Shown: piece after piece, positions 490 to 20,071 of the stretch
Layout of the letters: each line of letters starts with the position of its first letter
Numbering within the stretch: position 1 is the first letter of the stretch
Assembly (NCBI GenBank): GCA_046726415.1
Contig: JBKPAK010000192.1
Span: 1 to 31,328 of the forward strand
Length of the DNA: 31,328 nucleotides
From: Candidatus Methylomirabilota bacterium
GTDB taxonomy: Bacteria > Methylomirabilota > Methylomirabilia > Rokubacteriales > CSP1-6
Direction of reading: 5' to 3'
The notes under the pieces: model-generated
Databases searched by the model: none
What the model saw: the letters and a program-made list of their open reading frames with translations, nothing else
What the model was told of the DNA's origin: nothing
Position numbers and translations under genes: made by a program

Positions 490-1085
490 ATGAAGAGGCG
501 GCTGTTCTGGCGCTCTATGATCGGCGCGCTCGCCGTCCTCTCGACGGGAGCGCATGCGGAGGAGGTCGGCAAGGGCCTCCTGGACGCCCTGTACCGGAAG
601 TTCGCTCCCTCGTGGATCGAGATCGCCCAGCCGGGTCGGCAGGGAGTCGTGACTCGTCAGGAAGGCTGATCGTCCTGGCCATCGACGGCATTCCGGCCAT
701 GCCGTTCCGGGTGATGCGCGGTGGAGCCGATTCCCCCGCCGTCCACGTCATGGACTTTGCGATTCTGGAGATGACGGCCACGGGGAGGGTCGTGGCGAAG
801 CCGGGTCCGCTGTCGCTGGACGCCGGCACCCGCCTGGTGGTCCTGGACGTCCTGGTGAAGGGCGACCGCGTGCACCTGCTGACGCACACAGCCGACCCGA
901 TCCGCGGCGCACCGGGCGCCGGACCGGTCTACGGTTGTACGGAGTTCGTGTTCCGCATCGAGCCGCAGGAGCTCAGGGCGGAGGCCTTCGGGTACCTCGC
1001 CGAGCGCATCGAGCAGGCGTTCGCGTGGACTCCGCTGGAGCGGGTGTGCACCCCGGGTGTCGGCCCGCTCTGCGTCGAGCCATGA
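490..1085 (+). CDS. Exported hypothetical protein (one frameshift near 660)
   Basis: RBS CAGGAGG before ATG 490; signal peptide [23 protein letters not shown]. Restoring one G in CAGGAAGG (~658-665) joins it to ORF 612..1085, which contains VYGCTEFV and a C-terminal C-x7-C. Confidence 0.7.
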
Positions 1086-1122
1086 TCCGGTCGGCCGGGA
1101 TCCCGGCCACAGGAGCGGGCGC

Positions 1123-4100
1123 GTGATCAACTGGCTGATCGAGGTCTCGCTCCGCAACCGTTTCCTCGTCATCGCGTTTTTCCTACTTGTCGCGGGCTGG
1201 GGCTACTGGGCGCTGTTGACGACGCCGATCGACGCCATCCCCGACCTCTCCGACAACCAGGTGATCGTCTTCACCGACTGGACGGGGCGCTCGCCTCAGG
1301 AGGTCGAGGACCAGATCACCTACCCGCTCACCGTGAGCCTGCAGGGGCTACCTGGCGTGCGCGTGGTGCGATCCGCCTCGGCCTTCGGGTTCTCTATGAT
1401 CAACGTGATCTTCGAAGACAACGTCGACCTCTACTTCGCCCGCACGCGCGTGCTCGAACGGCTGAATCTCCTTTCCAAGTCGCTCCCGGCCGGCGCGGTG
1501 CCGACCTTGGGGCCGGACGCCACGGGCGTCGGTCATGTCTTCTGGTACACGGTCGAGGGCAAGGGCTACTCACTGCGCGACCTGCGCTCGATCCAGGACT
1601 GGTACGTCCGCTACCAGCTCAATGCCGTGCCAGGCGTGGCCGAGGTCGCGAGTGTGGGAGGAGTCGTGCGCCAGTACCAGGTGGATGTGGATCCCAACCG
1701 CCTCCGCGGCTACCGGATCTCGCTCGCCGCCGTGGTGGACGCGGTGATGCAGAGCAACCGGAACGTGGGTGGCAACGTCGTGGAATCGAGCGGGACGTGG
1801 ACTGTCATCCGCGGGCTCGGGCTGGTCCAGGACGTTCGCGACATCGAGCAGATCGTGGTGGCCGCCGAGAACGGGATCCCCATCTTCGTGCGCCAGGTGG
1901 CGACGGTGAAGATCGGCGATGCCTTCCGGGCCGCGGCGCTCGTCAAGGGGGCTGACGAGGCGGTCGGCGGCGTGGTGGTGGCCCGGTACGGCGTCAGCAC
2001 CGTGGACGTCATCGAGCGGGTGAAGGAAAAGATCAAGGCCCTCGAACTCGGTCTTCCGCCTGGTGTGAGGATCGTCCCGTTCTATGACCGCTCGGCCCTC
2101 ATCGAGCGCGCCGTGAATACCCTCAAGCGCGCGCTGCTCGAGGAGGCCGCCGTTGTCACGCTCGTGAACATCATCTTCCTCCTGCATTTCCGTTCGGTCC
2201 TGATCGTGACGATCCCTCTCCCGCTCGCCGTCCTCACCGCCTTCCTCTTCATGCGCTATCTGGGGATCAGCTCAAACATCATGTCGCTGGCGGGCATCGC
2301 TATCGCCGTCGGCGTGCTGGTCGACGCGGGCATCGTCGTCACGGAGAACGCCTTCCGCTTCATCGAGAGGCGGGGCGTCAATCCAAGGAACCGGCGACGC
2401 GTGGCGGAGACGGTGCTGGAGGCCACCCGCCTCGTGGGGCGGCCGATCTTCTTCTCGCTGGCCATCATCATCCTGGCCTTCCTGCCCGTATTCGCGCTCA
2501 CCGGCCAAGGGGGCAAGCTGTTCCACCCCCTCGCCTTCACCAAGACCTTCGCGATGATCGGCGCCACTGTGCTCTCCGTGACCCTGGTCCCGGTGCTCTG
2601 CAGTCTGCTCATCGGTGGGAAGATCCGCGGCGAGGAGTCCAACCCCGTGATGCGGCCGCTGGTGTGGCTCTACCGGCCGGTGCTCGACTTCGCACTCCGG
2701 CATCGCGTGATGACGCTCGGGCTCGCCGTGCTGGTCGTCGCGGGCGCGCTGGTGTTAGTGCCGCGGATCGGCAAGGAGTTCATGCCGCCGCTGAACGAGG
2801 GCGACCTGATGTTCATGCCGGTCACCGACCCGTCGATCTCCCTGGCGCAGAGCGTCGACATCGCGAAGATGCAGAACGAGGCGATCCAGGAGGTGCCCGA
2901 AGTGGCGTCGGTGGTGGCCAAGATCGCTCGGGCCGACACCTCGACCGACCCGGCGCCGGTGAACATGACGGAGACGGTCGTGAATCTCAAACCGGAGTCC
3001 CAGTGGCGGCCGGGAATGACGCGCGAAAAGCTCATCGGCGAGCTGGACCAGGCGACGGCGCTCCCGGGCGTGGCCAACATCTGGACCCAGCCCATCATCA
3101 ACCGGATCAACATGCTGACCACGGGGATCCGCTCAGAGGTCGGCGTGAAGGTCTTCGGGAGCGACCTGAAGGTCCTGGAGGAGCGGGCGCGGACCATCGC
3201 CGAGGTGCTGAAGACAATCCCGGGGGCGGCGGACGTCTACCCGGAACAGGTGACGGGGGCCCCGTACCTCGACATCCGGATCAAGCGGGAGGCGGCAGCG
3301 CGCTACGGCATCGGCGTCGGCGTGATCCAGGACGTGATCGAAACGGCGGTGGGGGAGACGAACCTCACGCTGACGATCGAGGGGCGGCAACGGTTCCCGG
3401 TGCGCGTGCGCTACGCCCCCGAGTACCGCGGAAGCTCGCAGGCGCTGGGTGACCTGCCCGTGCCCGCACCCAACGGTGCGCAAATTCCCCTCGCGCAGGT
3501 CGCCGAGATCCGGCAGGTGCCGGGCCCCGCCATGATCTCCAGCGAGAACGGGCTCCTGGTCGTGACTGTGCTTCTGAACGTGCGCGGGCGCGACGTGGGC
3601 AGCTTCGTCGAGGAGGCACGGGCGGCCACCGCGGCCAAGGTGCCGCTGCCGGCGGGATCGTACGTGGAGTGGAGCGGGCAGTACGAGAACGAGCGGCGGG
3701 CCCGCCAGCGCCTGCAGATCGTGATCCCCGTCGTCCTAGCCGTGATCTTCGTGCTCCTTTACCTAACGTATAGCTCGTTCCTCGACGCGCTGCAGGTGCT
3801 GCTGGCGGTCCCGTTCGGCCTGGCCGGCGGGATCTATCTGCTGTACCTCGTCGGCTACAACTTCTCGGTTGCCGTCTGGGTGGGTTTCATCGCGCTCTTC
3901 GGCACTGCCGTCCAGACGGCCGTGGTGATGGTGATCTACCTGGAGGAGGCGGTGCTGCGGAAGCGCGAGGAGCTGGACGGCCGCCTCACGCGCGAGGCCC
4001 TCCTCGAGGCAGTGAAGGAGGGCGCGCTGCTCCGGCTCCGCCCCAAGGTCATGACCGTCTCCACGGTGGTGCTGAGCCTGCTTCCCATCATGTGGAGCAC

Positions 4101-4299
4101 GTCCACGGGCGCCGAGGTGATGAAACCGCTCGCCACGCCCGTGCTAGGCGGCATGGTCAGCTCGCTCGGTCTCGTGCTGATCGTGACGCCCGTCATCTTC
4201 TTCTGGCTGCGAGAGCGTGACCTGCGACGCGCCGAGGCCGAGGCGCGAGCGGCCGCGCACTCACCGGCGGCGCCGCCGGTCGCGGGCACGGCGGATTGA
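1123..4299 (+). CDS. cusA: CusA/CzcA-family heavy-metal efflux RND permease (Cu+/Ag+ type)
   Basis: AGGAG RBS at 1111-1115 and GTG at 1123. Motifs [33 protein letters not shown]. Met triad equivalents in [18 protein letters not shown] and NRINMLTTG. Confidence 0.95.
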
Positions 4300-4333
4300 C
4301 TGACAACTCCAATCCCGACGCAGGAGGACTCGA

Positions 4334-4750
4334 ATGAACCGACGGACTGCGGTGGTTGCACTGAGCGGGCTGTTACTGTCGAACGCGCTGATGACGGCGG
4401 CGTGGGCCGCCGACCTGAAGGTGATCCAGACCCAGAAGAGCAAGGATGTCGTGGTCGCGTTGCTGAGCGAGTCCGGACAGTGGACGCAGGGCAAGAACAG
4501 CTTCGTCCTCGAGATCAAGTCGACGGCCACCAACCAGCCGGTCGACGCCGGCAAGGTGAGCCTGAGCACGAGCATGGCGATGCCGGGCATGGCGCCGATG
4601 ATCGCAGGCGCGAAGCTGTCGGCCGACAAGACCCCGGGTCGGTACCTGGGCGAGATCAGCTTCCCGGATAGTGGAGCGCGCCAGGTCACGGTGACCTGGG
4701 ATGGGCCGGCGGGGAAAGGCTCGACGAAGTTTTCAGTCTCCGTTCGCTGA
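4334..4750 (+). CDS. Periplasmic YtkA/FixH-like Ig-fold protein with Met-rich motif
   Basis: AGGAGG RBS; signal peptide ending AWA; SMAMPGMAPM motif; GRYxGxISFPDSG beta-strand pattern typical of YtkA-like proteins. Confidence 0.75.
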   Translation: MNRRTAVVALSGLLLSNALMTAAWAADLKVIQTQKSKDVVVALLSESGQWTQGKNSFVLEIKSTATNQPVDAGKVSLSTSMAMPGMAPMIAGAKLSADKTPGRYLGEISFPDSGARQVTVTWDGPAGKGSTKFSVSVR

Positions 4751-4755
4751 CCGCC

Positions 4756-6060
4756 ATGCGCTGGCTCGGGCCTGTTCTCGGCGTCATCGCAGGCCTCGTC
4801 GTCGCCGCGCCACTTCGGATTTTTGCACAGGAGACGGGCGCCGGCGTCATGACGGTGGACGAAGTCGTTGCGCGTGCCCTCGCCGACAACCCCGACCTCC
4901 GAGCGGTCCGGGCGGAGGTGGATGCCGCCGTGGGCCGCGTGAAGCAGGCGGGGCTGCGTCCGAACCCGATGCTGGAGCTTGGAGGGCAGAAAGCCATCAG
5001 TCCCGACAACAACCTCAACATCGGGGTCACCCTGCCCCTGGATCTGAACGGACGCGTGGACGGTCGGGTGGGTGTGGCGCAGCGCGAGCTGGAGATGAAG
5101 CGGGCCCAGGTCGCCGAGCGCGAGCGCCGGCTGGCCGCTGACGTCCGCCTCAAGGCCGGCGAGCTGCTCGCCGGCCGCCGCAACGTGGAGGTGACCGAGG
5201 AGCTCCTGCGGATCAATCGGGACGCGCTGCGCCTGGTGGGCGATCGCGTGCGCGAAGGGGCGGCGCCGCCCCTGGAGGAAAACCTTCTCCTCGTCGAGGT
5301 GAACCGCCTGGACGCGAGCCGCCAGATGCTGGAGAGCCGCGTGACGGTGACGGCCCTCCAGCTCAAGGCGCTGGCGGGCATGGAACCCGACGCGCCACTC
5401 GCGCTGCGCGGCGAACTGGCCGGGGTCTCTCCAGCGGTCAGTCGTGCGGAGGCAGTGGCGCAGGCGTTGGCGGGACGTCCCGACCTCGAGGTGGCCCGCG
5501 CCGACGCCGCCATGGCGCGCGCGAAGATCCGCAAGGAGGAGGCCGAGGGACGCTGGGACGCCAGCGTGAGCGTCGGCTACCAGCGCCAGGACTTCGGGTT
5601 CAGTGGCCTGCGCGGCGTCGCGTCGAACGGGTCGCTGCAGCAGATCCAGGATGTCTTCCACTACTTTGGGGCGGGCGTGAGCATCACCCTCCCGGTGCGC
5701 AACCGGAATCAGGGCAACGTGGCGGCGGCCGTCGCGGAGACGCGGGCGGCCGACCGGAGGCAGGAGTTCATGGTGCTGGTGATCCGCCAGGAAGTCGAAG
5801 CGGCCTTCACGCAGCTCGACGCCGCCCAGCGCGCGCTCAGCCTCTACGAGCGCGGCGTGCGGGACGTCGCCCAGCGGAACCTCGAGGTCGTCCGCCGCAC
5901 GTGGGAGCTGGGGCGCGGCAACCTGCTGGACGTGATCACCGAGCAGCGCCGCCTGATCGAGATTGAGAACGGCTACACGGATGCCCTCAAGCAGGTCTTC
6001 GACGCCACCGTCGAGATCGATCGGGCCGTAGGCCTGACCACGACCGCGCCGCGGGGGTGA
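4756..6060 (+). CDS. TolC-family outer-membrane efflux protein (CusC/CzcC-like)
   Basis: Signal peptide; ALADNPDL, LRPNP, RPDL, SITLPVRNRNQG and ELGRGNLLDV outer-membrane efflux repeat motifs; lies in the RND operon. Confidence 0.9.
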   Translation: MRWLGPVLGVIAGLVVAAPLRIFAQETGAGVMTVDEVVARALADNPDLRAVRAEVDAAVGRVKQAGLRPNPMLELGGQKAISPDNNLNIGVTLPLDLNGRVDGRVGVAQRELEMKRAQVAERERRLAADVRLKAGELLAGRRNVEVTEELLRINRDALRLVGDRVREGAAPPLEENLLLVEVNRLDASRQMLESRVTVTALQLKALAGMEPDAPLALRGELAGVSPAVSRAEAVAQALAGRPDLEVARADAAMARAKIRKEEAEGRWDASVSVGYQRQDFGFSGLRGVASNGSLQQIQDVFHYFGAGVSITLPVRNRNQGNVAAAVAETRAADRRQEFMVLVIRQEVEAAFTQLDAAQRALSLYERGVRDVAQRNLEVVRRTWELGRGNLLDVITEQRRLIEIENGYTDALKQVFDATVEIDRAVGLTTTAPRG

Positions 6061-6062
6061 TC

Positions 6063-7364
6063 ATGGAGGGACGGGTGAACGACCTCGAACCTCGCTCACG
6101 GTGGCGGCGCCGGCTCGGTCAGGTCGCGCTGGCTCTGGCGCTGCTGGCGGCCGGCGTGGCCGCAGGCGTCCTGTGGAGCGAGCGACGCGCTGCCGCCACC
6201 CGCACCGCGACGTCCGCCAGCGCGCCTTCTGGCGCTGCCACCGCCCCGGCACCGCCCGTCGCCGCTCCGGCGAACCCGACCACCTCAGCGGGAACGAACA
6301 CGGAGCCGGTCGAGGTCTCACTGACGCCTGACGCGATCGCGCGCGTCGGCCTCAAGACCGCGGTCGTGCGACAGGCTCCGGGAGGGGAGAGCCTCGCCGT
6401 TCCGGCGACGGTCATGCCCAATGCCTATCGCGACACCAAGGTCAACGCGCTCGTCGGAGGCATCGTCCGCGCGGTGTCCGCGGAACTGGGCTGGCTCGTG
6501 GTGCCGGGGCAGACGCTTGCCGTGATCTCGAGCCAGGAGCTGGCCGAAGCCCAGATGAAATACCTCTCCATGCAGGCCATGCTGGAGGCCGACCACCAGA
6601 AGCTCCGGCGCACGGAGAAGCTCGTCGACCTCGGCTCCGCGAGCCGACAAGAGCTGGAAGAGACCACCGCCGTCCACGCCGCGCATGCCACGGAGGTTGC
6701 CGCCGCCCGTGAACGGCTCGCGATCCTCGGCCTCTCCCGGCCGCAGATCGAACGACTCACGGATGCCTCCCAGATCGTCTCGGATGTCGTGGTGGCCGCT
6801 CCTGCTGAAGGCGTGGTGACCAGCCGCGCCGTCAACCCCGGCCAGGTGATCCCGGCAGGTCAGGAGCTGTTCGTGGTGGCCGACCTGAGCGCGGTGTGGG
6901 CGGTGGGCGAGGTTTACGAGCGAGACATGGCGCACGTGCGAGAGGGCGCGGAAGCTGAGATCTTGGCGTCGCCGTTGCCCGGCGCCGTCCTGCGTGGCCG
7001 TATCTCCTACATCGATCCGCGGGTCGATCCGGTAGCGCGCACGGTGAAGGTGCGCGTGGAGATCGGTAATCCGCGGAAGGAGCTCCGGTTCGGGATGTAC
7101 GTCACCATGCGCCTCTCCGTCGCAGGGGCAGGGCCAGTCGCGCTCGTGCCGCGAAGCGCGGTGCAGCCCCTGGGAGAGGTCTCGGTCGTGTACCTGCCCG
7201 TCGCCGAGGGCGAAGGACGGTTCGTGGAGCGCCCGGTGACGCTCGGCGGCGTTGTGGGAGACGCCGTCCAGGTCCTGAAGGGCCTGAAGCCGGGCGACCA
7301 CGTGGTGACGGACGGGAGCTTCTTTCTTCGCGCAGAGGCGGCCCGGGCGCGGTCGGGCGGGTAA
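6063..7364 (+). CDS. RND membrane-fusion (periplasmic adaptor) protein, CusB/CzcB-like
   Basis: N-terminal TM anchor, ADLSAVWAVGEVYE, GRISYIDPRVDPVARTVKVR, GLKPGDHVVTDGSF. Start is ATG 6063 or GTG 6057 overlapping the upstream stop. Confidence 0.9.
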   Translation: MEGRVNDLEPRSRWRRRLGQVALALALLAAGVAAGVLWSERRAAATRTATSASAPSGAATAPAPPVAAPANPTTSAGTNTEPVEVSLTPDAIARVGLKTAVVRQAPGGESLAVPATVMPNAYRDTKVNALVGGIVRAVSAELGWLVVPGQTLAVISSQELAEAQMKYLSMQAMLEADHQKLRRTEKLVDLGSASRQELEETTAVHAAHATEVAAARERLAILGLSRPQIERLTDASQIVSDVVVAAPAEGVVTSRAVNPGQVIPAGQELFVVADLSAVWAVGEVYERDMAHVREGAEAEILASPLPGAVLRGRISYIDPRVDPVARTVKVRVEIGNPRKELRFGMYVTMRLSVAGAGPVALVPRSAVQPLGEVSVVYLPVAEGEGRFVERPVTLGGVVGDAVQVLKGLKPGDHVVTDGSFFLRAEAARARSGG

Positions 7365-7369
7365 GCGCG

Positions 7370-7826
7370 GTGCCGACGGCACGCCTCGTCGGCAGACTCC
7401 TGGCCATCAGCCTGCCGCTCTACTTCGCGTGGGAGATGCTGCAGATGCCGGCCTTCACCGGCACTCCGGCGGGATGGCTGGTGAACACGCTCATGTCCGT
7501 CCTCGCCACTCTCCTCGATGCAGCCTTGGTGCTGGGTCTCTACGGCATCGGGTGGGTCTTTCGCGATTCGCTCTGGTTCCGGCCACCACGGTCGCTACCT
7601 GCTTGTCGTTCTCTTGGCCATCGCGGTGTGAACTCGGTCTGGGAGTGGGTCACCGTCGATGGGTCTCTGTGGCTACAGTGCGTGGCATCCCACCGGGGTG
7701 GGTGTCGGATTGGCGGCCATCCTCCAGGCGGTTGTCATGCCGCCCGCGGTGCTTCTGCTCCTCGCCCGATGGGAAGTGTGCGCGGGGCTCCCTAAATCCG
7801 TCACCTCGCCGCGCCAGCCCGGCTGA
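7370..7826 (+). pseudogene. Small membrane protein, multiply frameshifted
   Basis: Frame 1 LYFAWEMLQMPAF..LLDAALV. Later pieces RYLLVVLLAIAV, VWEWV and GYSAWHPTGVGVGLAAILQAVVMPPAVLLLLARW..* lie in different frames. Confidence 0.6.
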
Positions 7827-7874
7827 GGGAGACTGGCGGCTAACCTGTAAGCCGCGTTCGACAGGAGGTCGAGG

Positions 7875-10356
<2,482 letters not shown>

Positions 10357-10500
10357 CTACTCCAGCTCGCCCGTATGCCGCCCGATGCGATGAGGCTGAC
10401 GCTAACGAAGAAGCACGATGCGCCGCGGTCTTTCTGGGTGAAAGAAACCGGCAGTGGAACCGTCAGAGTAGTGCAACAAGCTGATTCGATGGAGATGCGC

Positions 10501-10695: not shown

Positions 10696-11206
10696 TCACG
10701 CCCCGAGCATCCGCGCGGCCTTCTCCTCGTAAAACCTCACGGCGTGCTTGAGCTGCGACGGCCGGATGCTGGTCTAGATCTGGGTCGTGTCGATGCGGGC
10801 GTGGCCGAGGAGCGCGCGCACCTGCTCGAGGTCGTGCTGCTGCTCGAGCACCTCCATCGCCGCACCGTGCCGGAGATCGTGGGGCTTGAGCTCCGGAACT
10901 CCGATCATACGGCCGTATACCTTGCACAACCGCCACACGTTCTTCCCCGTCATCGGCCCGCGCACCTTGCCGAGCATGCGCTTGCCCCACGTCGACCAGA
11001 ACAGCGGCGTCTCGCCGTCGAGCCGGTCGACCTCCTTCGCGAGCACCTGCTCGATGTAGAGCTGCAGGAACTGCATCACCGCGCGAGGCAGGGGAATGTC
11101 CCGCGTCCTGCCCCCTTTCACAACCACTCCGCGAAGACCCCCACTCCATGTCGAGGTGTCTCAGCCGCAGAGTCGCGACGGACTCGCGGCGCATGCCGGT
11201 AAAGCG
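10696..11206 (-). pseudogene. Tyrosine recombinase/integrase catalytic-domain remnant
   Basis: RFTGMRRES, VKGG, KPHDLRH, LLGHARIDTTQI then TAG (10774-10776) where the catalytic Tyr belongs; the frame continues to TGA at 10696. Frameshift near 11138; N-terminal domain absent. Confidence 0.9.
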
Positions 11207-11886: not shown

Positions 11887-11949
11887 CAAAAGCGACGATT
11901 CTGCCTCTATTTCCCTGGACGAGCCCGTACGTGAGTTGAGGGGAGAGAC

Positions 11950-12870
<921 letters not shown>

Positions 12871-12871
12871 T

Positions 12872-13690
12872 GTCGATGGAGGGTCGTATTACGTAGAATC
12901 ATCCGGCGCGCGCGATGGGCCGCTTGGTCGATGTGGTGGCCCGAGAGATGTCGCCGTACGTCGCACTGCTGTACGCGCAGAGCGGATGCCCATCGATTGT
13001 TCTCCAGACGGTGCGGCCGTCCGAGTTGGTCCAGGTCCGGTATACCGGTCTGAGCGAGAGGCTGCGCGTTGAGCAGTTGATTGCAAACTGCTCTTTCGCC
13101 GGTTCGTGGGTCTGACCATGGACGACGCGGTCTGGGGCGCCACGGAGGTCACCAGATAGCGGGGAGGGCTGGGCGGCGAGGCGGCCCGCGCGCTCCTCGA
13201 GCACGTCGTGGCGGGGGCCCGCGCCCAGCATCTGCTGTCCAGTGAACACTTCTCCGTCGACGGTATCCTGATCGAAGCGTGGGCGAGCCTCGAGAGGTTC
13301 CAGCGCACGGCCGGGGTGGGCGGCCCGCCTGCCGACGATCCCGGGAATCCGACCGTCGCTTTGGGTGGGGAGCGGTGTAGTAACAGTCCCCGTGCCTCGA
13401 CGACGCACCGGGAGGCCCGGCGCGTTCTGAAAGAAAACGGTCACGGGTCCAAGCTTCGCCACCAAGGGCATGTCTTGATGGAAAGCGGCTAGGGGCTCGT
13501 CGGCGACGGCGTCACGCCACCGGCCGGCACCGCGAAGCGGGAGGCGGCGGTGGAGATGGCCGGGCGGGTGCCACAGGACGGCCGCCTGCCGCTGGGCGGC
13601 GACAAAGGCTCTGACACCCGCGAGTTTGTCGCGGCCCTGCGGGACATGGCGGTGACGCAGCACGTCACCCGAACCACGAGGAACCGGTTG
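12872..13690 (+). mobile_element. Heavily degraded IS5-family transposase
   Basis: Fragments LYAQSGCPSI, SERLRVEQL, MDDAVW, LLSSEHFSVDGILIEAWAS, DDPGNPTV, GHVLME, LGGDKGSDT..FV, with several stops and frameshifts. Confidence 0.85.
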
Positions 13691-13825
13691 TCCTTCGCCA
13701 AATTCCATTCGGCCGACCTAACGGCTATCAGGGACCCTGGGCTGGCGGCGCGTCGTCGATCAAGACAATCATTACCGGCGCCGACGTGTCAACCATCTTG
13801 CCGCGGCCGTCCTAGGCGACCACAC

Positions 13826-13910
13826 TGCGCATTCCGACCATCGTGAACATCGCGATCGCTCCATCGTGAACGCATCGATCGGTCGATCATGATCGGAGCG
13901 CAGCGACGCT
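13826..13910 (-). repeat. IS21-family right end (terminal repeat array)
   Basis: Starts TGCGCATTCCG; CCATCGTGAAC repeated at 13838-13848 and 13861-13871 plus a degenerate third copy; directly downstream of istB. Confidence 0.8.
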
Positions 13911-13916
13911 AGGCGG

Positions 13917-14445
13917 TCAGGTTTCGAGCTTGCCCTCCTTTCGCCGTGAGGGACCTTTTGGCACGATACGCTGGGCGTTGTGGAGGAGGCGGTCGCAGAT
14001 CGAGTCGGCGAGAGTGGGATCGCCGATGAAGGTGTGCCACTGGGCGGCGGGGAGCTGGCTGGTCAGGATGGTGGCGCGGGTGCCGTGCCGGTCGTCGAGG
14101 AGTTCGAGGAAGTCCCGCCGATCCTGCGGGGCGAGCGCATCGAGTCCCCAGTCGTCGACGAGCAACACGTGGACGCGGGCGAGCTTGGTGAGCAGGCGCA
14201 GGTAGGTGCCATCGGCGCGGGCGAGGGGGAGCTCGTGGAAGAGGTGGGACGCGCGCCGGTAGAGCGCCCGGAAGCCCTTGCGACAGGCTTGATGGGCGAA
14301 GGCGCAGCCGACGAACGTCTTGCCGGTGCCGGTAGCGCCGACCACCAGGAGATTCTGGTGTTCCTCGACCCAGCGGCAACTGGCGAGCTGCCGGACGAGG
14401 GCTTTGTCGAGCTCGCGCCGAGCCGGATAGTCGATGGCTTCCACG
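13917..14445 (-). pseudogene. istB: IS21 helper ATPase IstB, 5'-truncated
   Basis: IDYPARRELD, Walker A GATGTGKT, Walker B LLVDDWG, TSQLP..W, ADSICDRLLHNA. The N-terminus and istA are replaced by the repeat starting at 14446. Confidence 0.92.
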
Positions 14446-14509
14446 GAGCATAGGCCGCATAAAAGCCTAGTTGGCGGAACCTCCGTTCTCAGCCCCTCCC
14501 GCCCCCCTG
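14446..14509 (-). repeat. ~97-bp dispersed repeat, copy 1 (truncated, 64 bp)
   Basis: GAGCATAGGCCGCATAAAAGCCTAGTTGGCGGAACCTCCGTTCTCAGCCCCTCCCGCCCCCCTG, near-identical to the copies at 17487 and 18698. Confidence 0.97.
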
Positions 14510-14977
14510 GAGACCGCGAACTTCGGCTTGGACTGAACGGACGGGGTCCAGATCGCCATGAGAGGGTGGAAGGGGGCGGGCCTCGATGCCGATCTGAAGC
14601 TCAAGGAGACGGGGGCCTTCGTGTCCAGCGCGATGCTCGGCCGCTTCGAGCGGATGATGCTGGCGATGCGCGGCGGCGCTCTCTTTCCCGACCCGTATCT
14701 GGCGGCGCTGCACTTGCCGGGCGAGCGCACCAACTCCTCGGGCGTCAACGACCCCAAGCTCACGGAGCTCATCCGGCTCCAGCGACGCACCTTCGACGTG
14801 GCCCGCCGGCGCGACATCGTCTGGGATATCCAGCGCCACCTGGCCGGGCAGGTTTACTACCTCTACGGGCCTTCGCCGCGAGTGGTCGCGGCCTGGGAGG
14901 GGTACGTGCGGAACTTCGCGCCGAATCTCGGCAACGACTACGGGGGTCGCCTCGTGGCCGCGTGGCTCGACCGCTGA
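14504..14977 (+). pseudogene. C-terminal fragment of a family-5 (peptide/nickel) ABC substrate-binding protein
   Basis: NSSGVNDPKLTELIRLQRRTFD..RR.IVWDIQRHLA..AWLDR*; in-frame TGA at 14534-14536; the 5' part of the gene is replaced by repeat copy 1. Confidence 0.75.
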
Positions 14978-15591
14978 GTGGCCGCCCACACGGGAATGCT
15001 GGCCGAGACCATCCGGCTCATTCAGGGCGACGCCTGGCGGATGGAATGCCTGGAGGCCATCGCCTCGCTCGGGCTTCCCGACTGGTACATCGCGGCCGGC
15101 TTTCTCCGCAACGCCATCTGGGACGCGCGTCACGCGAAACCCGTCCCCACCCCCCTCAATGACGTCGACGTCATCTACTACGACCCGGGGGACGGCGGGA
15201 CGGCCGCTGAGGCCCAGATCGAGTCCGCGCTGCGGACGCGGGGCCCCATCGTGACGTGGGAGGCCCGGAACCAGGCCCGGATGCACCTTCGCAACGGGCA
15301 TGCTCCCTATCGGGACTCCGCGCATGCCATGGCTCACTGGATCGAGACGCCGACGTGCGTCGGCGTCCGGATGCGCGGCGATCGACGTCTGGAGATCGTC
15401 GCGCCGTATGGCATCGAGGAAAACTGGTCGCTGAGACTCGCCCCAATCCATGCGTCCGGTATCCGGCCGCTCTGTTCACCCAGCGGGTGCGGGAGAAGCG
15501 CTGGCTGGAGCACTGGCCCCGGCTCCGGGTCGAGTGGCCTCCGGAGAGTCGGGGCCACGTCATGATCCACCTCGGCTCCGATCCGGGATGA
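14978..15591 (+). CDS. Putative nucleotidyltransferase (DUF925-like); one frameshift near 15443
   Basis: LPDWYIAAGFLRNAIWD, DVDVIYYD, NQARMH, APYG. The C-terminus NP..FTQRVREKRWLEHWPRL lies in another frame after CCCCAAT. Confidence 0.85.
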
Positions 15592-15595
15592 TCCG

Positions 15596-16441
15596 GTGAC
15601 TCAGGCCGACGCGCTCCGTCGCTACGCCGAGGAGCTGGCCTACACGGCTCACCTGACCTCGCCGGCCGTCATCGAGGCGTTCGCGCGGGTGCCGCGCGAG
15701 CGCTTCCTCGGCCCGGGACCGTGGAGGATCTTTCAGCCCTACGCGCGCAGTTACTGGACCACTCCTGATGCCGACCCGCGACATCTCTATCACGACGTGC
15801 TGGTGGCCATCGACGAAGCGCGCTGGCTGAACAACGGCCAGCCGAGCTTTCTGGGCTTCCTCATTCAGGCCCTCGACGTCCGCGAGGGCGATCACGTCCT
15901 CCACGTCGGTTGCGGCACGGGCTACTTCACGGCCATCCTCGCCGAGCTCGTCGGACCGGCGGGCCGGGTCACGGCCACCGAGGTCGACGCCGACCTCGCC
16001 CTCCGCAGTCAGAACAACCTGGCGGACCGGCCCAACGTGGAGGTCTTTCACGCCGACGGTGGCGACCATGATTCCGGTCCCGCCGATGCCGTCATGATCA
16101 ACGCCGGCGCCACCCACCCTCGCCCCATCTTGCTCGATGCTCTCCGCCCTGGCGGCAGGATGCTCCTGCCGCTCACCGGGCCGCTCGGCAACGGGTGGGT
16201 GCTCAAGGTGGTGCGTCGGGGCGCCGGCTATGCGGCGAGCTGGGTGTCGGCCATCACCATCTTTCCGTGCGTCGGAGCTCGCGACGAGGAGACGGCCGGC
16301 CTTCTCCGCGATGCCTTCGTCAGCGGCGGCGGCGCGGCCGTGCACTCTCTTCGCCGCGAGCTCCATGAACGCGAGCCCAGCTGCTGGTTTCACCGCGACA
16401 GGTTCTTTCTGTCCACGGCCGATCCAGCGCCGGAGGGCTAG
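15596..16441 (+). CDS. Protein-L-isoaspartate O-methyltransferase (PCMT)-like SAM methyltransferase
   Basis: AFARVPRERFLGPGPW, NNGQPS, SAM motif VLHVGCGTGYFTAILAELVG, LRPGGRMLLP. Confidence 0.88.
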   Translation: MTQADALRRYAEELAYTAHLTSPAVIEAFARVPRERFLGPGPWRIFQPYARSYWTTPDADPRHLYHDVLVAIDEARWLNNGQPSFLGFLIQALDVREGDHVLHVGCGTGYFTAILAELVGPAGRVTATEVDADLALRSQNNLADRPNVEVFHADGGDHDSGPADAVMINAGATHPRPILLDALRPGGRMLLPLTGPLGNGWVLKVVRRGAGYAASWVSAITIFPCVGARDEETAGLLRDAFVSGGGAAVHSLRRELHEREPSCWFHRDRFFLSTADPAPEG

Positions 16442-16478
16442 CCCTCGGCGCCGAGCGAGCTCCTCGGCGCCGGTGACG

Positions 16479-16509
16479 CGGAGGTCCAGGCCCTGGTCCT
16501 GGACCTCCG
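16479..16509. terminator. Perfect 12-bp hairpin between convergent genes
   Basis: CGGAGGTCCAGG-7 nt-CCTGGACCTCCG. A second 9-bp stem lies at 16447-16471. Confidence 0.55.
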
Positions 16510-16522
16510 GTTCCGGGGATGC

Positions 16523-17038
16523 TTACTGGGTCAGGCGGTATCCCGAGATCGCCACGTTACAGGTCATGGTCGGGGTATTCGTGGTCGGAAACGCCGTGAG
16601 CCTCACGCTGCTGCCGGGCCCGGCATATATCCGGGTGATCTGGCTCGCGACCCCCTCCGCGGGAAACGTCGTCGGGTTGAGAGCAAAGAAGTGGTCGACA
16701 CTGGTCGACAGGCGGAGCGTCCCCGGTATCGTGGGCTGTCCCTGGCAAGCCGCCGAGACAAATTCGATGACCAGGACCTCGCCGGCCGGGACCGTGGTGA
16801 GGGTCAATCCGAACCCGGTCGTGTTGAACTGGTTGGTCAGGATACCGGTCGACGTCTGGAAGGCATGCCGCGCGGCATTGTCCACGTCACGCACGATCGC
16901 GGGATTCGCCTCCGTGTTGTCCACGGTGACCTGCTTGTCGGGCGCGGCGTCGATGCCGGCCGGCCACACGAGGGCGAGCGCAGCCCAGCCCCCGACGATC
17001 GCGGACGAGACGAGGTTCAGTCGTCTTGCTGTACCCAT
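16523..17038 (-). CDS. Exported hypothetical protein (beta-rich)
   Basis: GAGAGGAG RBS, signal-peptide-like N-terminus, three Cys/Thr-rich beta segments ending ISGY; no family recognised. Confidence 0.7.
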   Translation of the reverse strand: MGTARRLNLVSSAIVGGWAALALVWPAGIDAAPDKQVTVDNTEANPAIVRDVDNAARHAFQTSTGILTNQFNTTGFGLTLTTVPAGEVLVIEFVSAACQGQPTIPGTLRLSTSVDHFFALNPTTFPAEGVASQITRIYAGPGSSVRLTAFPTTNTPTMTCNVAISGYRLTQ

Positions 17039-17486
17039 GAAGTGGCTCCTCTCTTGACGCTGATCGGTTCCCGTCGGGCAGCGAGGTCACGCTCGCTGCG
17101 CGACGTCGGCGCCGGCCTCGAGCCCGGTGCCGATCTGCGGACCCACAGCCACGAAGAGAGCCGCGCCGCGAATCCGCCCGCTTCTCGTCTCGCGAGTCGG
17201 TTGCCGCGGCGAGGCGCCCGCGTCCGCGGAGGGCCCCGCGCTCTCCGCGGCACCGTGACCGTGGTCAGACGGCCGCTCGATGACCCGTCGCGTCTGAACA
17301 TTCCGCCGTCAGGGAGAGACACCAGCGCCGGTCGGCGGAGACATCGGGACGACCAGCCCGAGCAGGGGAAGAGCCGACTCGCAGATGATCGTGAAGGCCG
17401 CCCCAGGGTGACCGTGACGCTGCGGAGAGTGAAGTCCAGGAGCCGGCCGGTGGTAAGGTTTCGGCACACCGCAAATCGGATATGGC

Positions 17487-17582
17487 GAGCATAGGCCGGA
17501 TAAAAGCCTAGTTGGCGGAACCTCCGTTCTCAACCCCTCCCGCCCCCTGCCGCCGCTCCTGCCACTGCCCCCCCGGCACAGA
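17487..17582 (-). repeat. ~97-bp dispersed repeat, copy 2
   Basis: GAGCATAGGCCGGATAAAAGCCTAGTTGGCGGAACC...CCGGCACAGA; same orientation and same left boundary as the other copies. Confidence 0.97.
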
Positions 17583-17751
17583 CGGCGGCCGCTAGACGCG
17601 GCGCAATCCGGCCTCGATGACCGGATCGGCCATTCTTCCCGCCGGCACCAAGGCCTCAGGCCCATCGATCCCCCCGCCCGCGGGAGGGTGGGACCTCGGA
17701 CAGCGGCCCGGCGGATGGTATGGTGTCCCACGTCTTCCCTGGGAGGTCTAC

Positions 17752-18187
17752 ATGAGGCGAATGATGCTCGCGATCGCGCTGCTGCTTCCGGGCTTCCATC
17801 GTCAATGGCGCGAACCAGAAGGTGTACCTCGACTCGGTTCCCCCCGGCGCTCACGTCACCATCTCGGCGATCGAGAAGTCGACCGGACAGCCGGAGACGA
17901 CGGGGGCGCCGCGCTCCACTCCGACGACCGTGGAGTTGAGCCGCAGCAAAGTCTATCGCTTGCTCTTCAGGGGTGCTGGGTTCCCCGACCGCGAGGTCAC
18001 GCTCGGTCAGTCCGTGTCCGGCTGGGTGTGGGGGAACCTCATTTTCGGCGGGCTGGGCTTCCTGATCGACATGGGTACGGGTGGGATGAACAAGCTCGTC
18101 CCGGAACCGGTGGTCGTCGACATGGCGTCGGGGAAAGTGCGCGGTGTCGATGCCGCGCCCGGCGTGGTGGCAGCAACCCCGCGCTAG
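17752..18187 (+). pseudogene. PEGA-like lipoprotein with frameshift at the lipobox
   Basis: GGGAGG RBS; MRRMMLAIALLLPG then a shift to SIVNGANQKVYLDSVPPGA..TP..WVWGNLIFGGLGFLIDMGTG. The lipobox Cys codon is missing. Extended -10-like TGGTATGGT at 17716-17724. Confidence 0.75.
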
Positions 18188-18277
18188 CAATAGAGCGATC
18201 ACCGCCGGGCGCCCGGGGGCTTCGGGTTGCCCTTGGACCCACCCGAGCGACCGGACGACCCCCGGCCGCCCGCCGGG

Positions 18278-18697
18278 CTAGCGAACGACCCCGGCCGCCC
18301 GCAAGCGGGTCAGTTCGTCCGGGGAGAGGCCGGCTTCACGGAGTACGACGTCGGTGTGCTCGCCGCGCGCCGGTGCGCCGGGTGCCCGGCGTCTTTTCGA
18401 AGCGGACCGCTGTGTCGATCGTGCGAAAGCGCCCAGCTCGCGGATGCTCTTCCTCCACGATGATCCGGCTCGCGCTGATCTGGGGGTCGCGCTCGAGCTC
18501 GGCGTAGCGGTTGACCGGGGCGCCAGAACATCGCAGGCTTCGAACGCGCTCATCCAGTCAGCCACCGTGCGCTCGCGGAAGACGGGCGCCAGGATGTTCA
18601 TCAGCGCGGCGCGGTGTTTGGCCCGGCCCGCTCGGGACGCGAAGCGCGGATCGCGCGCGAGGTCGCCCCGGCCGACGGCCGCGCAGAAGGGCTCACA
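18278..18697 (-). pseudogene. C-terminal fragment of a CaiB/BaiF (family III) CoA-transferase
   Basis: FCAAVGRGDLARDPRF..R, APVN..DPQ, HPRAG, GEHTDVVLREAG..LRAAGVV across frameshifts; 5' part replaced by repeat copy 3. Confidence 0.85.
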
Positions 18698-18796
18698 GAG
18701 CATAGGCCGCATAAAAGCCTAGTTGGCGGAACCTCCGTTCCCAGCCCCTCTCGCCCCCCTGCCGCCGCTCCTGCCACGGCCCCCCCCCGGCACAGA
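18698..18796 (-). repeat. ~97-bp dispersed repeat, copy 3 (bounded by a 12-bp direct repeat)
   Basis: Full copy; CACAGAGCATAG occurs at both 18694-18705 and 18791-18802. Confidence 0.97.
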
Positions 18797-18799
18797 GCA

Positions 18800-19027
18800 T
18801 AGCAGGGGCGGGAAGCCGAGCACGCGCAGGGCCACCGCCGCGAACACGGCGCCCTCCAGGCAATGCGCCGTCCAATCGCGGAGCACGAGACGGGGAGGCC
18901 AGGCGGTCGGCGCGAGATGGTACGGCATGCTGTCCAGCGCGCGCTGGACCCCACGCGTCGTCCGAAACGAGCCGAGCGTGCGCAGCTCGCGCGCCGTGAA
19001 ACCGAAGTCGCGGCGCGCGGCGGCCAC
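18800..19027 (-). pseudogene. N-terminal half of a conserved hypothetical (transglutaminase-like Cys motif) protein
   Basis: VQRALDSMPYH..PRLVLRD.TAHCLEGAVFAAVALRVLGFPPLL, cut off by repeat copy 3. Confidence 0.65.
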
Positions 19028-19031
19028 GCCC

Positions 19032-19245
19032 TCAGCGCGGGAGCAGCTTGGCGATGGGGTCGAGGTGCCGGGGACTCGGCAAGAAGCCGACACCGTGTCG
19101 GTGCATCTCGGCGACGACGGCGTCGTTGATGGGCGTCGGAACCCCGCGCTCGCGCCCGCGCCGGCTCACGTAGCTGTTGAGGTGGTCGATCTCGGTGCGG
19201 CGCTTGCGCATCACGTCCTGCAGCATCGAGGGCCCGGTCGCGCCG
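19032..19245 (-). pseudogene. C-terminal fragment of a ketopantoate reductase (ApbA/PanE) family protein
   Basis: PSMLQDVMRKRRTEIDHLNSYV..G...GVPTPIN motif; the Rossmann domain is absent. Confidence 0.85.
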
Positions 19246-19327
19246 GCCGCTCCCGGCCGCCGGCACACCGGGGGAGCGTACCACGGGATCGGCGGGATCC
19301 TTCGCCGCTCGAGCTGGAAAACTCCCC

Positions 19328-20071
19328 TCAGGCGATAGCGCCGACCAGTTCCCCGGCCACCCCCGCCTTCAATTTCTCCGCGAACTCCTCGACCGTGAGC
19401 ACCCAGCCGATGCACCGGGCGATGTTCTGAAGGCCGAACACGTGGAGATCGTGCCCGTACATGCTGGCCACGCAATCGGAGATCACCACGACGGCGAAGT
19501 CCCGATCCAGGGCGGAGAACGCGGTGTTGAGGACGCAGGTGTTCGTGTTGATCCCGGTCAGGACCACCGTCTTGGCGCCCAAAATCCGCAGCAGGTGCTC
19601 GAGATCCGTGTTGGTGAAGCAGTTCAGACGCTTCTTGTTGTCGACGACGTAGTCCCTTCCTCGCTCGTAGAGCGAGGGGATGACCTCGGTGAGCATGCTG
19701 CCCTCGATGTTGTGCGAGTCCAGTGTGCTCTTCTTCCCGGGAATCCATCGATCGGACTCCACCATCTGGCTGAGCTTGTCCCAGAAGGGGCACGCGCGCC
19801 CCTCCGCACCCAGGCCGGGGATCAACCGCTGCACGGTGACCACGTGAATCACGGGCACGCCGGCGGCCCGAGCGTGCTTGAGCAGGCGCTCGGTGGCCCG
19901 GATGACGCGCTCGCAGTCCTCCGTCGAGGCCGGCATCGTCGCCACTGCCGGATCGAGGTGTCCCCGGTGCATGTCAACGGTGACGATCGCGGTCTCCCGG
20001 GGATTGATCTCGAGCAGGGCCTTCATCTTCTCGATCATGTCTGACCGGTCGACGATTTCAACAGTCGCCAT
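19328..20071 (-). CDS. Isochorismatase-family cysteine hydrolase
   Basis: GGAGG RBS; triad motifs TVDMH (Asp), NKKRLNCF (Lys), GINTNTCV (Cys). Confidence 0.9.
   Translation of the reverse strand: MATVEIVDRSDMIEKMKALLEINPRETAIVTVDMHRGHLDPAVATMPASTEDCERVIRATERLLKHARAAGVPVIHVVTVQRLIPGLGAEGRACPFWDKLSQMVESDRWIPGKKSTLDSHNIEGSMLTEVIPSLYERGRDYVVDNKKRLNCFTNTDLEHLLRILGAKTVVLTGINTNTCVLNTAFSALDRDFAVVVISDCVASMYGHDLHVFGLQNIARCIGWVLTVEEFAEKLKAGVAGELVGAIA

Follow-up and report, generated by a model that had tools for sequence, protein, structure and literature searches.

Short repeats at gene breakpoints in a Rokubacteriales genome: probable transposase-less miniatures of an IS91-family insertion sequence

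Three copies of a short repeat and their family in the genome

The window, by which we mean the whole 31,328-nucleotide (nt) stretch analyzed here (positions 1 to 31,328 of contig JBKPAK010000192.1, assembly GCA_046726415.1, from a Candidatus Methylomirabilota bacterium of the order Rokubacteriales), consists between 10.7 and 19.3 kb of gene debris, including integrase, cyclase, and sigma-54 activator fragments. Within this island lie three copies, designated c1, c2, and c3 in order of position, of a short non-coding repeat. We consider it probable that these repeats are transposase-less miniatures derived from a rolling-circle insertion sequence, of the IS91 family, with a wide distribution in the order. 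The genome holding the window, designated G000, is a 7.6-Mb bin of 352 contigs with an estimated contamination of 4.66%. Contigs are given C-numbers and genomes G-numbers; order-wide comparisons cover 183 genomes of the bacterial order, with G000 included in pattern counts, and the term transposase sense refers to the window minus strand.

A repeat search of the window found a single family (D1, 68 nt), with three co-oriented copies starting at about 14442, 17483, and 18694 (identity 100, 87, and 96%). Alignment gives the three a common left edge, GAGCATAGG, and in a genome-wide nhmmer search with a profile built from c1, c2, and c3 they score with E-values of 1.5e-19 to 3.6e-28, which excludes chance. 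A first-pass annotation of the sequence, which had described three co-oriented copies with a shared left boundary, is confirmed on this point. Its repeat length of about 97 bp fits c2 (95 nt) and c3 (98 nt), but not c1, which has only 64 nt. Its right limit at 18802 needs correction: c3 ends at 18795, and the extra seven bases, AGCATAG, repeat the start of the element. The copies and their shared core are listed below, where oriIS-type denotes the terminus distal to the transposase gene tnpA and ter the far side.

14446..14509, minus strand: c1, oriIS-type module, terminal 64 nt only, far (ter) side absent; ends CCTATGCTC at 14446 in transposase sense
17487..17581, minus strand: c2, complete 95-nt miniature, from the oriIS terminus at 17487 to the CTGT/ACAG far end at 17581
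18698..18795, minus strand: c3, complete 98-nt miniature
18796..18802, minus strand: AGCATAG, 7 nt, truncated start of a putative fourth copy; with the G at 18795 it reads GAGCATAG
14470..14490, also 17511-17531 and 18722-18742, no strand assigned: subterminal palindrome core GTTGGCGGAAC-N4-GTTCTC; nearly every member has GAAC and GTTC, whereas the middle 4 nt are variable

Both c2 and c3 have the far end GGCACAG, and they are identical at 90 of 98 positions; over its 64 nt, c1 is identical to c3 at 62 of 64 positions and to c2 at 61 of 65. Read in transposase sense, a complete copy consists of 5'-CTGTGCC, a C/G-rich stretch, the GAGAACGGAGGTTCCGCCAAC subterminal palindrome, and GGCTTTTATGCGGCCTATGCTC-3'. 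The minus-strand ending GCTTTT-N6-CCTAT-GCTC noted in the first pass is present in all three copies. The bases AGCATAG at 18796-18802 would be the remnant of a further copy; they are missing from the paralogous contig C46. A 12-nt sequence, CACAGAGCATAG, found at both edges of c3 is composed of the element end plus the element start, and therefore is no target duplication. At 18791-18802, GGCACAG joined to AGCATAGG mimics a circle junction.

The copies have fixed ends, lack terminal inverted repeats and target duplications, and have gene breakpoints at their edges. None of the 22 inverted-repeat pairs found in the window bounds any copy, and the flanks of the listed copies contain no target duplication, just as the first pass had it. 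No transposase gene is present in the window copies. An ATG does occur within the repeat, and the open reading frames (ORFs) 13909-14460 and 18278-18712 start inside the element.

The same profile finds 11 further members in G000 at E<0.01, and a regular expression for the core marks 19 places, one of which (C75) is apparently unrelated, for a family of about 18 diverged members. These share the left end GAGCRTAG, the core GTTGACGGAAC-N4-GTTCTC, a C-rich stretch into which a variable, hairpin-like sequence is inserted, and CCCCCGGYACAG as the far end; copy length ranges from about 67 to 115 nt genome-wide. In eleven copies the sequence breaks off at ACAG, with unrelated DNA beyond; another four extend into a second module (module B, described below), and two are cut earlier. 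On several short contigs the copies form co-oriented clusters, spaced 1-3 kb apart. The first pass had counted copies in intact intergenic spacers, like REP (repetitive extragenic palindromic) elements, against its own reading. This applies in part, as several copies lie at or just past the stop codons of apparently whole genes (C18:7890, a TPR-methyltransferase; C252, a UbiD-type gene that ends in the element's own TAG; and C215), a placement compatible with a mobile element. A search of 40 relatives at the DNA level for an empty site of the C252 copy had no match outside G000; the relatives are too diverged, and the result says nothing on mobility.

Between two co-oriented copies at C18:7890-10154 lie three apparently whole genes in the same direction (Hcp, a TPR protein, and the TPR-methyltransferase), with the last stop touching the next copy, so that the whole resembles a cassette. 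Two copies on C252 (5254-5365 and about 5444-5578, the second known from a BLAST match to C255) have opposite orientations and stand about 80 nt apart, between the UbiD-type and a TauE-type gene. At C160:380-621, three tandem 64-nt partial units, each running from the core to ACAG without the GAGCATAG start, precede module B; simple insertion does not explain such tandems. The last 7-11 nt of the terminus are duplicated (e.g. CTTACGCTCTACGCTC) at the ends of both full and miniature copies (loci L072 and L078, C160:601, and window 18796-18802), a pattern suggesting that the insertion point of a new copy is a few bases within the terminus of a resident one.

Linkage of the repeat to IS91-type transposase genes

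The regular expression for the core, run with a reversed-pattern control over the 183 genomes, matched in 26 of them, with the highest count (16 matches) in G000; the control gave 0 everywhere. Pfam models were applied to 68 ORFs near the core matches, out of 81 that passed a codon-composition filter, and a single Y2_Tnp gene was found beside a copy, in G068. On contig C19 of that genome, tnpA is a 498-amino-acid ORF with matches to Zn_Tnp_IS91 (PF14319, 3.1e-19) and Y2_Tnp (PF04986, 5.9e-20). Past its stop codon come, within 313 nt, module B and then the window-type module, both reversed, and the element terminus is GTTCCGTCAACCAGGGCCTTTATCCCGTCTACGCTC, also written CTACGCTC and GAGAAGGCGCGTTCCGTCAACCAGGGCCTTTATCCCGTCTACGCTC. 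The order of gene, module B, and window-type module recurs in the sequences of G158:C12, G158:C16, and G034, and coordinates give the order of gene and module in G028:C97 and G035:C503. The terminal 60 nt or so of the window copies align to three such tnpA-linked ends. On sequence grounds, this shared end and the order of gene and module in related genomes identify the repeat module as the tnpA-distal (oriIS-type) terminus of an IS91-family element, and the oriIS resemblance proposed in the first pass is upheld. The features that fit the IS91 family are the partner with Zn_Tnp_IS91 and Y2 domains in relatives, a tnpA-distal end with a GAAC-N4-GTTC palindrome, and the lack of terminal inverted repeats and target duplications.

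Relatives of the G068-type transposase occur in 76 of the 183 genomes. We searched 700 nt past the stop codon at 26 tnpA loci, four of which have less than 300 nt of downstream DNA, for an end resembling T[TA]AT..-N-CTAYGCTC. It was found at 13 loci with a loose pattern, and at six with a strict one. One of the 13, L074, comes from the unpublished genome G148, and the claim stands without it. Full elements in related genomes end in TTTAT-N-CTAYGCTC. The window copies satisfy the strict pattern, which has a total of nine matches in G000, compared to four in the reversed control.

Within the full element, the window-type module starts right after TTGTCCGCG, with CTGTRCC, and the stand-alone copies start at the same CTGT. 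This fixed CTGT lies at the border of two non-coding modules. Module B, the other of these, is a conserved region of about 100 nt between tnpA and the terminal module, starting with CGCGGACAACCAGCGTGTCAC on the window-plus-like strand; examples are L070 (G068:C19) 6174-6290 and, in G000, C160:391, C229:3948, and C255:5642. It ends in TTTGTCCGCG, which is followed by CTGT and resembles a further oriIS-type site lying inward of the terminal one; given this inner end, the present element may be an older insertion sequence fused to a miniature that it landed beside. Inside the terminal module of L070, at 6300-6410, are five tandem 19-nt units (GGGGGCGGACGCGAGAACC), and the same unit, single or double, makes up the variable hairpin of several G000 copies; such units may be repeated transposase-binding sites. 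A further motif, GTGTATCCATCTTTGGGCATTG, is strongly conserved about 55 nt before the tnpA start at some 20 loci (e.g. L070 4620-4650) whose transposases are only 50-60% identical, and could be a promoter or operator, or part of the ter end.

Remnants of tnpA occur in G000 as well. C-terminal pieces lie just inside two copies of the repeat, at C18:7411-7629 (73% identity) and C255:5766-6038 (56%), and the longest fragment is a frameshifted copy (57-59% identity) that runs off contig C298. As regards a possible link to a Rep_trans-like insertion sequence, PF02486 has no match in G000 at E<=0.01, and no connection to the repeat was found.

Broken genes at the repeat edges and the origin of the joints

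The broken genes and mosaic segments around the copies are as follows.

10777..11160, minus strand: C-terminal part of a tyrosine recombinase
11935..12414: piece of an adenylate/guanylate cyclase
12146..13072: piece of a sigma-54 activator, AAA+ domain
13917..14444, minus strand: fragment of IstB, the IS21 helper ATPase (PF01695, E-value 1.9e-51, profile positions 64-236 of 238); about the first 63 positions are gone, and it breaks at the c1 edge
14510..17486, no strand assigned: segment 1, c1 to c2; binding-protein (SBP)-like gene tail (14558-14977, plus), nucleotidyltransferase PF06042 (14978-15565, plus), PCMT-like methyltransferase (15596-16441, plus), and unassigned DNA
17582..18697, no strand assigned: segment 2, c2 to c3; alpha/beta-hydrolase tail from 17582, insert of about 640 nt partly like C261 (17714-18135), and CoA-transferase family III tail (18278-18712, minus; paralogous part 18288-18694)
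18803..19288, no strand assigned: further debris of genes, right of c3; a piece resembling C46:1-316, and a PanE/ApbA paralog with an internal deletion

Upstream of the island, at 883-10481, an RND efflux pump, an outer-membrane factor, a membrane-fusion protein, and a P-type heavy-metal ATPase look ordinary. In G040 (locus L048), too, a sigma-54 activator fragment directly follows modules A and B.

Every copy joins unrelated flanks. Pfam alignments show that the IstB and CoA-transferase III homologies both begin no more than two codons from the repeat edge, at c1 and c3 respectively; the CoA_transf_3 fragment left of c3 spans profile positions 248-366 of 366, which bears out the CoA-transferase tail reported there in the first pass. 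That annotation also had c1 joining a truncated istB to a binding-protein tail. The IstB truncation is exact, but the only support for the tail is that 14741-14971 matches the 3' end of an SBP_bac_5 gene (contig C19 of G000) with 75% DNA identity; Pfam finds no match at that place. The right junction of c1, at 14509/14510, lies inside the element, which is joined there to the SBP-tail-like DNA with a possible CTG microhomology; c1, whose CTGT side is lost, precedes the longest segment, of 3 kb. At c2, said earlier to have no truncated neighbor, the DNA to the right starts with the last 70 nt or so of an alpha/beta-hydrolase gene paralog.

The DNA between the copies is a mosaic of pieces that are 75-88% identical to other G000 contigs, where the genes are intact. 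On contig C66, an alpha/beta-hydrolase gene runs toward a full CoA-transferase gene of opposite orientation. The match of segment 2 to the hydrolase tail runs from the first base past the ACAG of c2, is interrupted by the insert of about 640 nt, and resumes with the CoA-transferase tail up to the c3 edge, where CAGAG is common to both sequences. The C66 gene order is discontinued left of c2 and right of c3. The PanE/ApbA paralog right of c3 matches C102:2-244 with 18990-19232 and C102:1082-1137 with 19233-19288, having lost about 840 nt compared to the intact C102 copy.

At least four units stand head to tail in a decaying island. If the enzymology follows IS91 and IS801, a Y2 HUH transposase encoded by a full-length copy would nick at the oriIS terminus, the strand would be displaced towards the far end, and transfer would stop at a ter-like tetranucleotide. 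Stopping at CTGT would yield a miniature of about 95 nt; reading past CTGT, or losing it as c1 has, would carry neighboring DNA along. Mobilization in trans, the nick sites, and capture by read-through are what we infer from this analogy, under which the 95-98-nt copies may be either termination products at an internal ter-like site or true miniatures with both ter and ori ends. The most likely history of the island is one of repeated insertion at or beside the ends of resident copies, with some adjoining gene pieces carried along or lost on the way, so that genes are cut exactly at repeat edges. For segment 2, read-through would mean that c2 formerly lay in a hydrolase gene, was copied together with 1.1 kb past its far end, and landed beside c3. 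We hold such carriage to be plausible and no more, because insertion followed by loss of one flank, or recombination between copies, gives the same picture. The first-pass proposal of stacked mini-ISCR elements with passenger segments is therefore sustained as regards oriIS miniatures lacking a transposase, while its passengers are a plausible addition that fits c2, and the transposase it called for is represented in G000 by fragments.

A number of observations weigh against the miniature reading. A tblastn search with the G068 protein found fragments but no intact cognate transposase in the G000 assembly. Insertion sequences are often missing from binned assemblies, however, and this result does not show a true absence. 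At the three Y2_Tnp loci of G000 (C69, C296, and C298) no window-type end was found downstream, although C298 runs off its contig. Alignments upstream of tnpA gave ragged boundaries and no defined 5' (terIS) end of the full-length element, so that the assignment of CTGT as ter-like is drawn solely from the fixed end of the miniatures. Flanking tetranucleotides of 15 copies have an invariant C next to GCT, while position 2 is C in 8 copies, G in 3, T in 3, and A in 1, without a clear target preference; the flank of c3 is CTGT, the same as the miniature's own start. Fold energies of the window copies (z from -1.2 to -2.3, with a positive value for a C255 copy) are not distinctive. Divergence is 3-8% among the window copies, and the segments between them are only 75-88% like their paralogs, which makes the events old or the DNA a derivative from elsewhere. 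Finally, no repeat is present at the PanE/ApbA deletion (19232/19233), so decay of the island needs no element.

It is possible, at appreciably lower probability, that the repeats are the same IS91-type miniatures and that the joints arose from homologous recombination between dispersed co-oriented copies, with ordinary deletions and no read-through. Each copy would then have its left flank from one site and its right flank from a different one, which agrees with the unrelated flanks seen at every copy, with the repeat-free decay in the island (the ApbA deletion and the integrase, cyclase, and sigma-54 activator fragments), and with a c1 junction inside the element at a possible microhomology. 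As precedent, the portion of Bardaji et al. drawn on here judges most genomic IS801 fragments to be products of reorganization and not of one-ended transposition (PMC3189936). On the other side, homology between segment 2 and C66 starts at the very first base past the ACAG of c2, as read-through predicts, although insertion with flank loss would do the same. Copies of 95-98 nt that have diverged by 3-8% are, moreover, poor substrates for homologous recombination.

More doubtful still is an extension of the miniature reading, in which the miniatures form a cassette-stacking system: a nick at the end of a resident copy would serve as landing site, and units of miniature plus cargo would pile up in one direction. 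If true, this would mean that genes and gene pieces accumulate in the manner of an integron, but through an HUH enzyme and not an integrase, with the C18 unit as a whole-gene example.

It is improbable that any of the joints is a chimera, created at the repeat when this metagenome-assembled genome was put together. The fragmentation and estimated contamination of the bin would allow it, and contigs from public runs provide partial coverage. Four soil runs contain 39-73% of sampled words from 13900-19300, and the source sample may be one of these. Both c2 junctions are spanned by contigs of run X2, and one contig of run X1 crosses the right junction of c1 with a short side of 30 nt; the repeat is also shorter than the usual read length. 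Around c3, public-run contigs break off at 18697 and begin again at 18809/18818, and no listed contig bridges the left edge of c1 or either edge of c3. An X2 contig joins 18200 to 19236 (side 53 nt), skipping c3 and its neighbors, and may be a population variant of the island; loose ends at 19232/19233 in public-run contigs belong to the intact PanE/ApbA form.

A host element, be it an intergenic repeat of REP type, a terminator, a regulatory RNA, or a cassette site resembling attC, would account for co-oriented clustering at 1-3 kb and for copies right at the stops of whole genes, but it is very improbable indeed, being largely refuted by direct linkage to IS91-type transposase genes in several genomes and opposed by the genes broken at the repeat edge, by a patchy distribution (26 of 183 genomes, with most copies in G000), and by Rfam 15 covariance models, which found nothing at E<=1 either at positions 13500-19500 of the window or at five loci with modules A and B. 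The attC consensus ends in RYYYAAC...GTTRRRY (R''/R' boxes); as the ends GAGCATAG and GGCACAG are not mutually complementary in this manner, an integron attC or cassette array was rejected. Sigma-70, sigma-54, and extracytoplasmic-function (ECF) promoters, compared by eye to their consensus sequences, do not fit the conserved core. An IS200/IS605-type element, with two hairpins and a fixed flanking tetranucleotide, was dropped on the strength of the Y2 transposase linkage, no search for a Y1 transposase having been made.

Relation to known rolling-circle elements

Derivatives of this kind have been described. In the portion of Bardaji et al. 2011 drawn on here, right-end miniatures of IS801 of 229, 360, and 679 nt were recovered as trapped transpositions in Pseudomonas syringae pv. 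phaseolicola; the IS801 pieces have the right terminus in common, and the tetranucleotide at which they start is like that at the left end of the element, and full copies carried 290-1431 nt of adjacent DNA (PMC3189936). The likeness to the present family is close, since in both cases gene-less copies share the oriIS terminus and stop at a fixed tetranucleotide, the IS801 miniatures having moved in trans and their parent being able to carry neighboring DNA. In contrast, the copies described here are shorter (64-98 nt in the window), more numerous (about 18), stop at CTGT instead of a GAAC-type sequence, and are stacked head to tail; they belong to an uncultured soil lineage, known here from sequence alone, with no intact partner in the assembly.

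A second comparison is to one-ended transposition of IS91 and IS1294 and to experimental mini-IS91 constructs. According to the parts of the source used here, an 89-bp ter end and an 82-bp ori end of IS91 suffice when transposase is supplied in trans, termination fails in 1-10% of events, which makes read-through past terIS a route of DNA capture, and the family has distinct ends, a tetranucleotide target, and no target duplication (PMC13181058). Unlike ends, a subterminal oriIS palindrome, the lack of target duplication, and a Y2 HUH transposase whose N-terminal domain is zinc-binding are common to that system and ours (PMC13181058, same parts). The present family differs in showing no clear tetranucleotide target and in the undefined terIS of its full element.

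In complex class 1 integrons, the places where unrelated captured segments meet are marked by oriIS ends of ISCR elements, either stand-alone or truncated. The window, unlike these, has no resistance genes or integron context, and its segments are mostly broken paralogs of housekeeping type. The non-autonomous Helitrons of eukaryotes, as far as the partial account used here goes, are likewise enzyme-less rolling-circle elements that gather gene fragments and stack head to tail, but their enzymes are of a Rep/helicase family and their hosts are different, so the resemblance is by analogy only.

Miniature right-end derivatives and DNA capture are thus already in print for IS801 and IS91, and the repeats do not represent a new kind of system. 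No literature on such elements in Methylomirabilota or Rokubacteria turned up in our searches, which were not aimed at the phylum, and we make no claim of absence.

The miniature reading gives the repeat family a name and a mechanism in a little-studied phylum known only from metagenomes, and it accounts for the identical sequence edges at which genes of the island are cut. There is a warning for annotation, too, as the ATG inside the repeat leads to false gene starts. The family is a further natural example of IS91-type miniatures, of which few are listed, and bears on the rolling-circle shuffling of DNA outside the clinical setting of ISCR.

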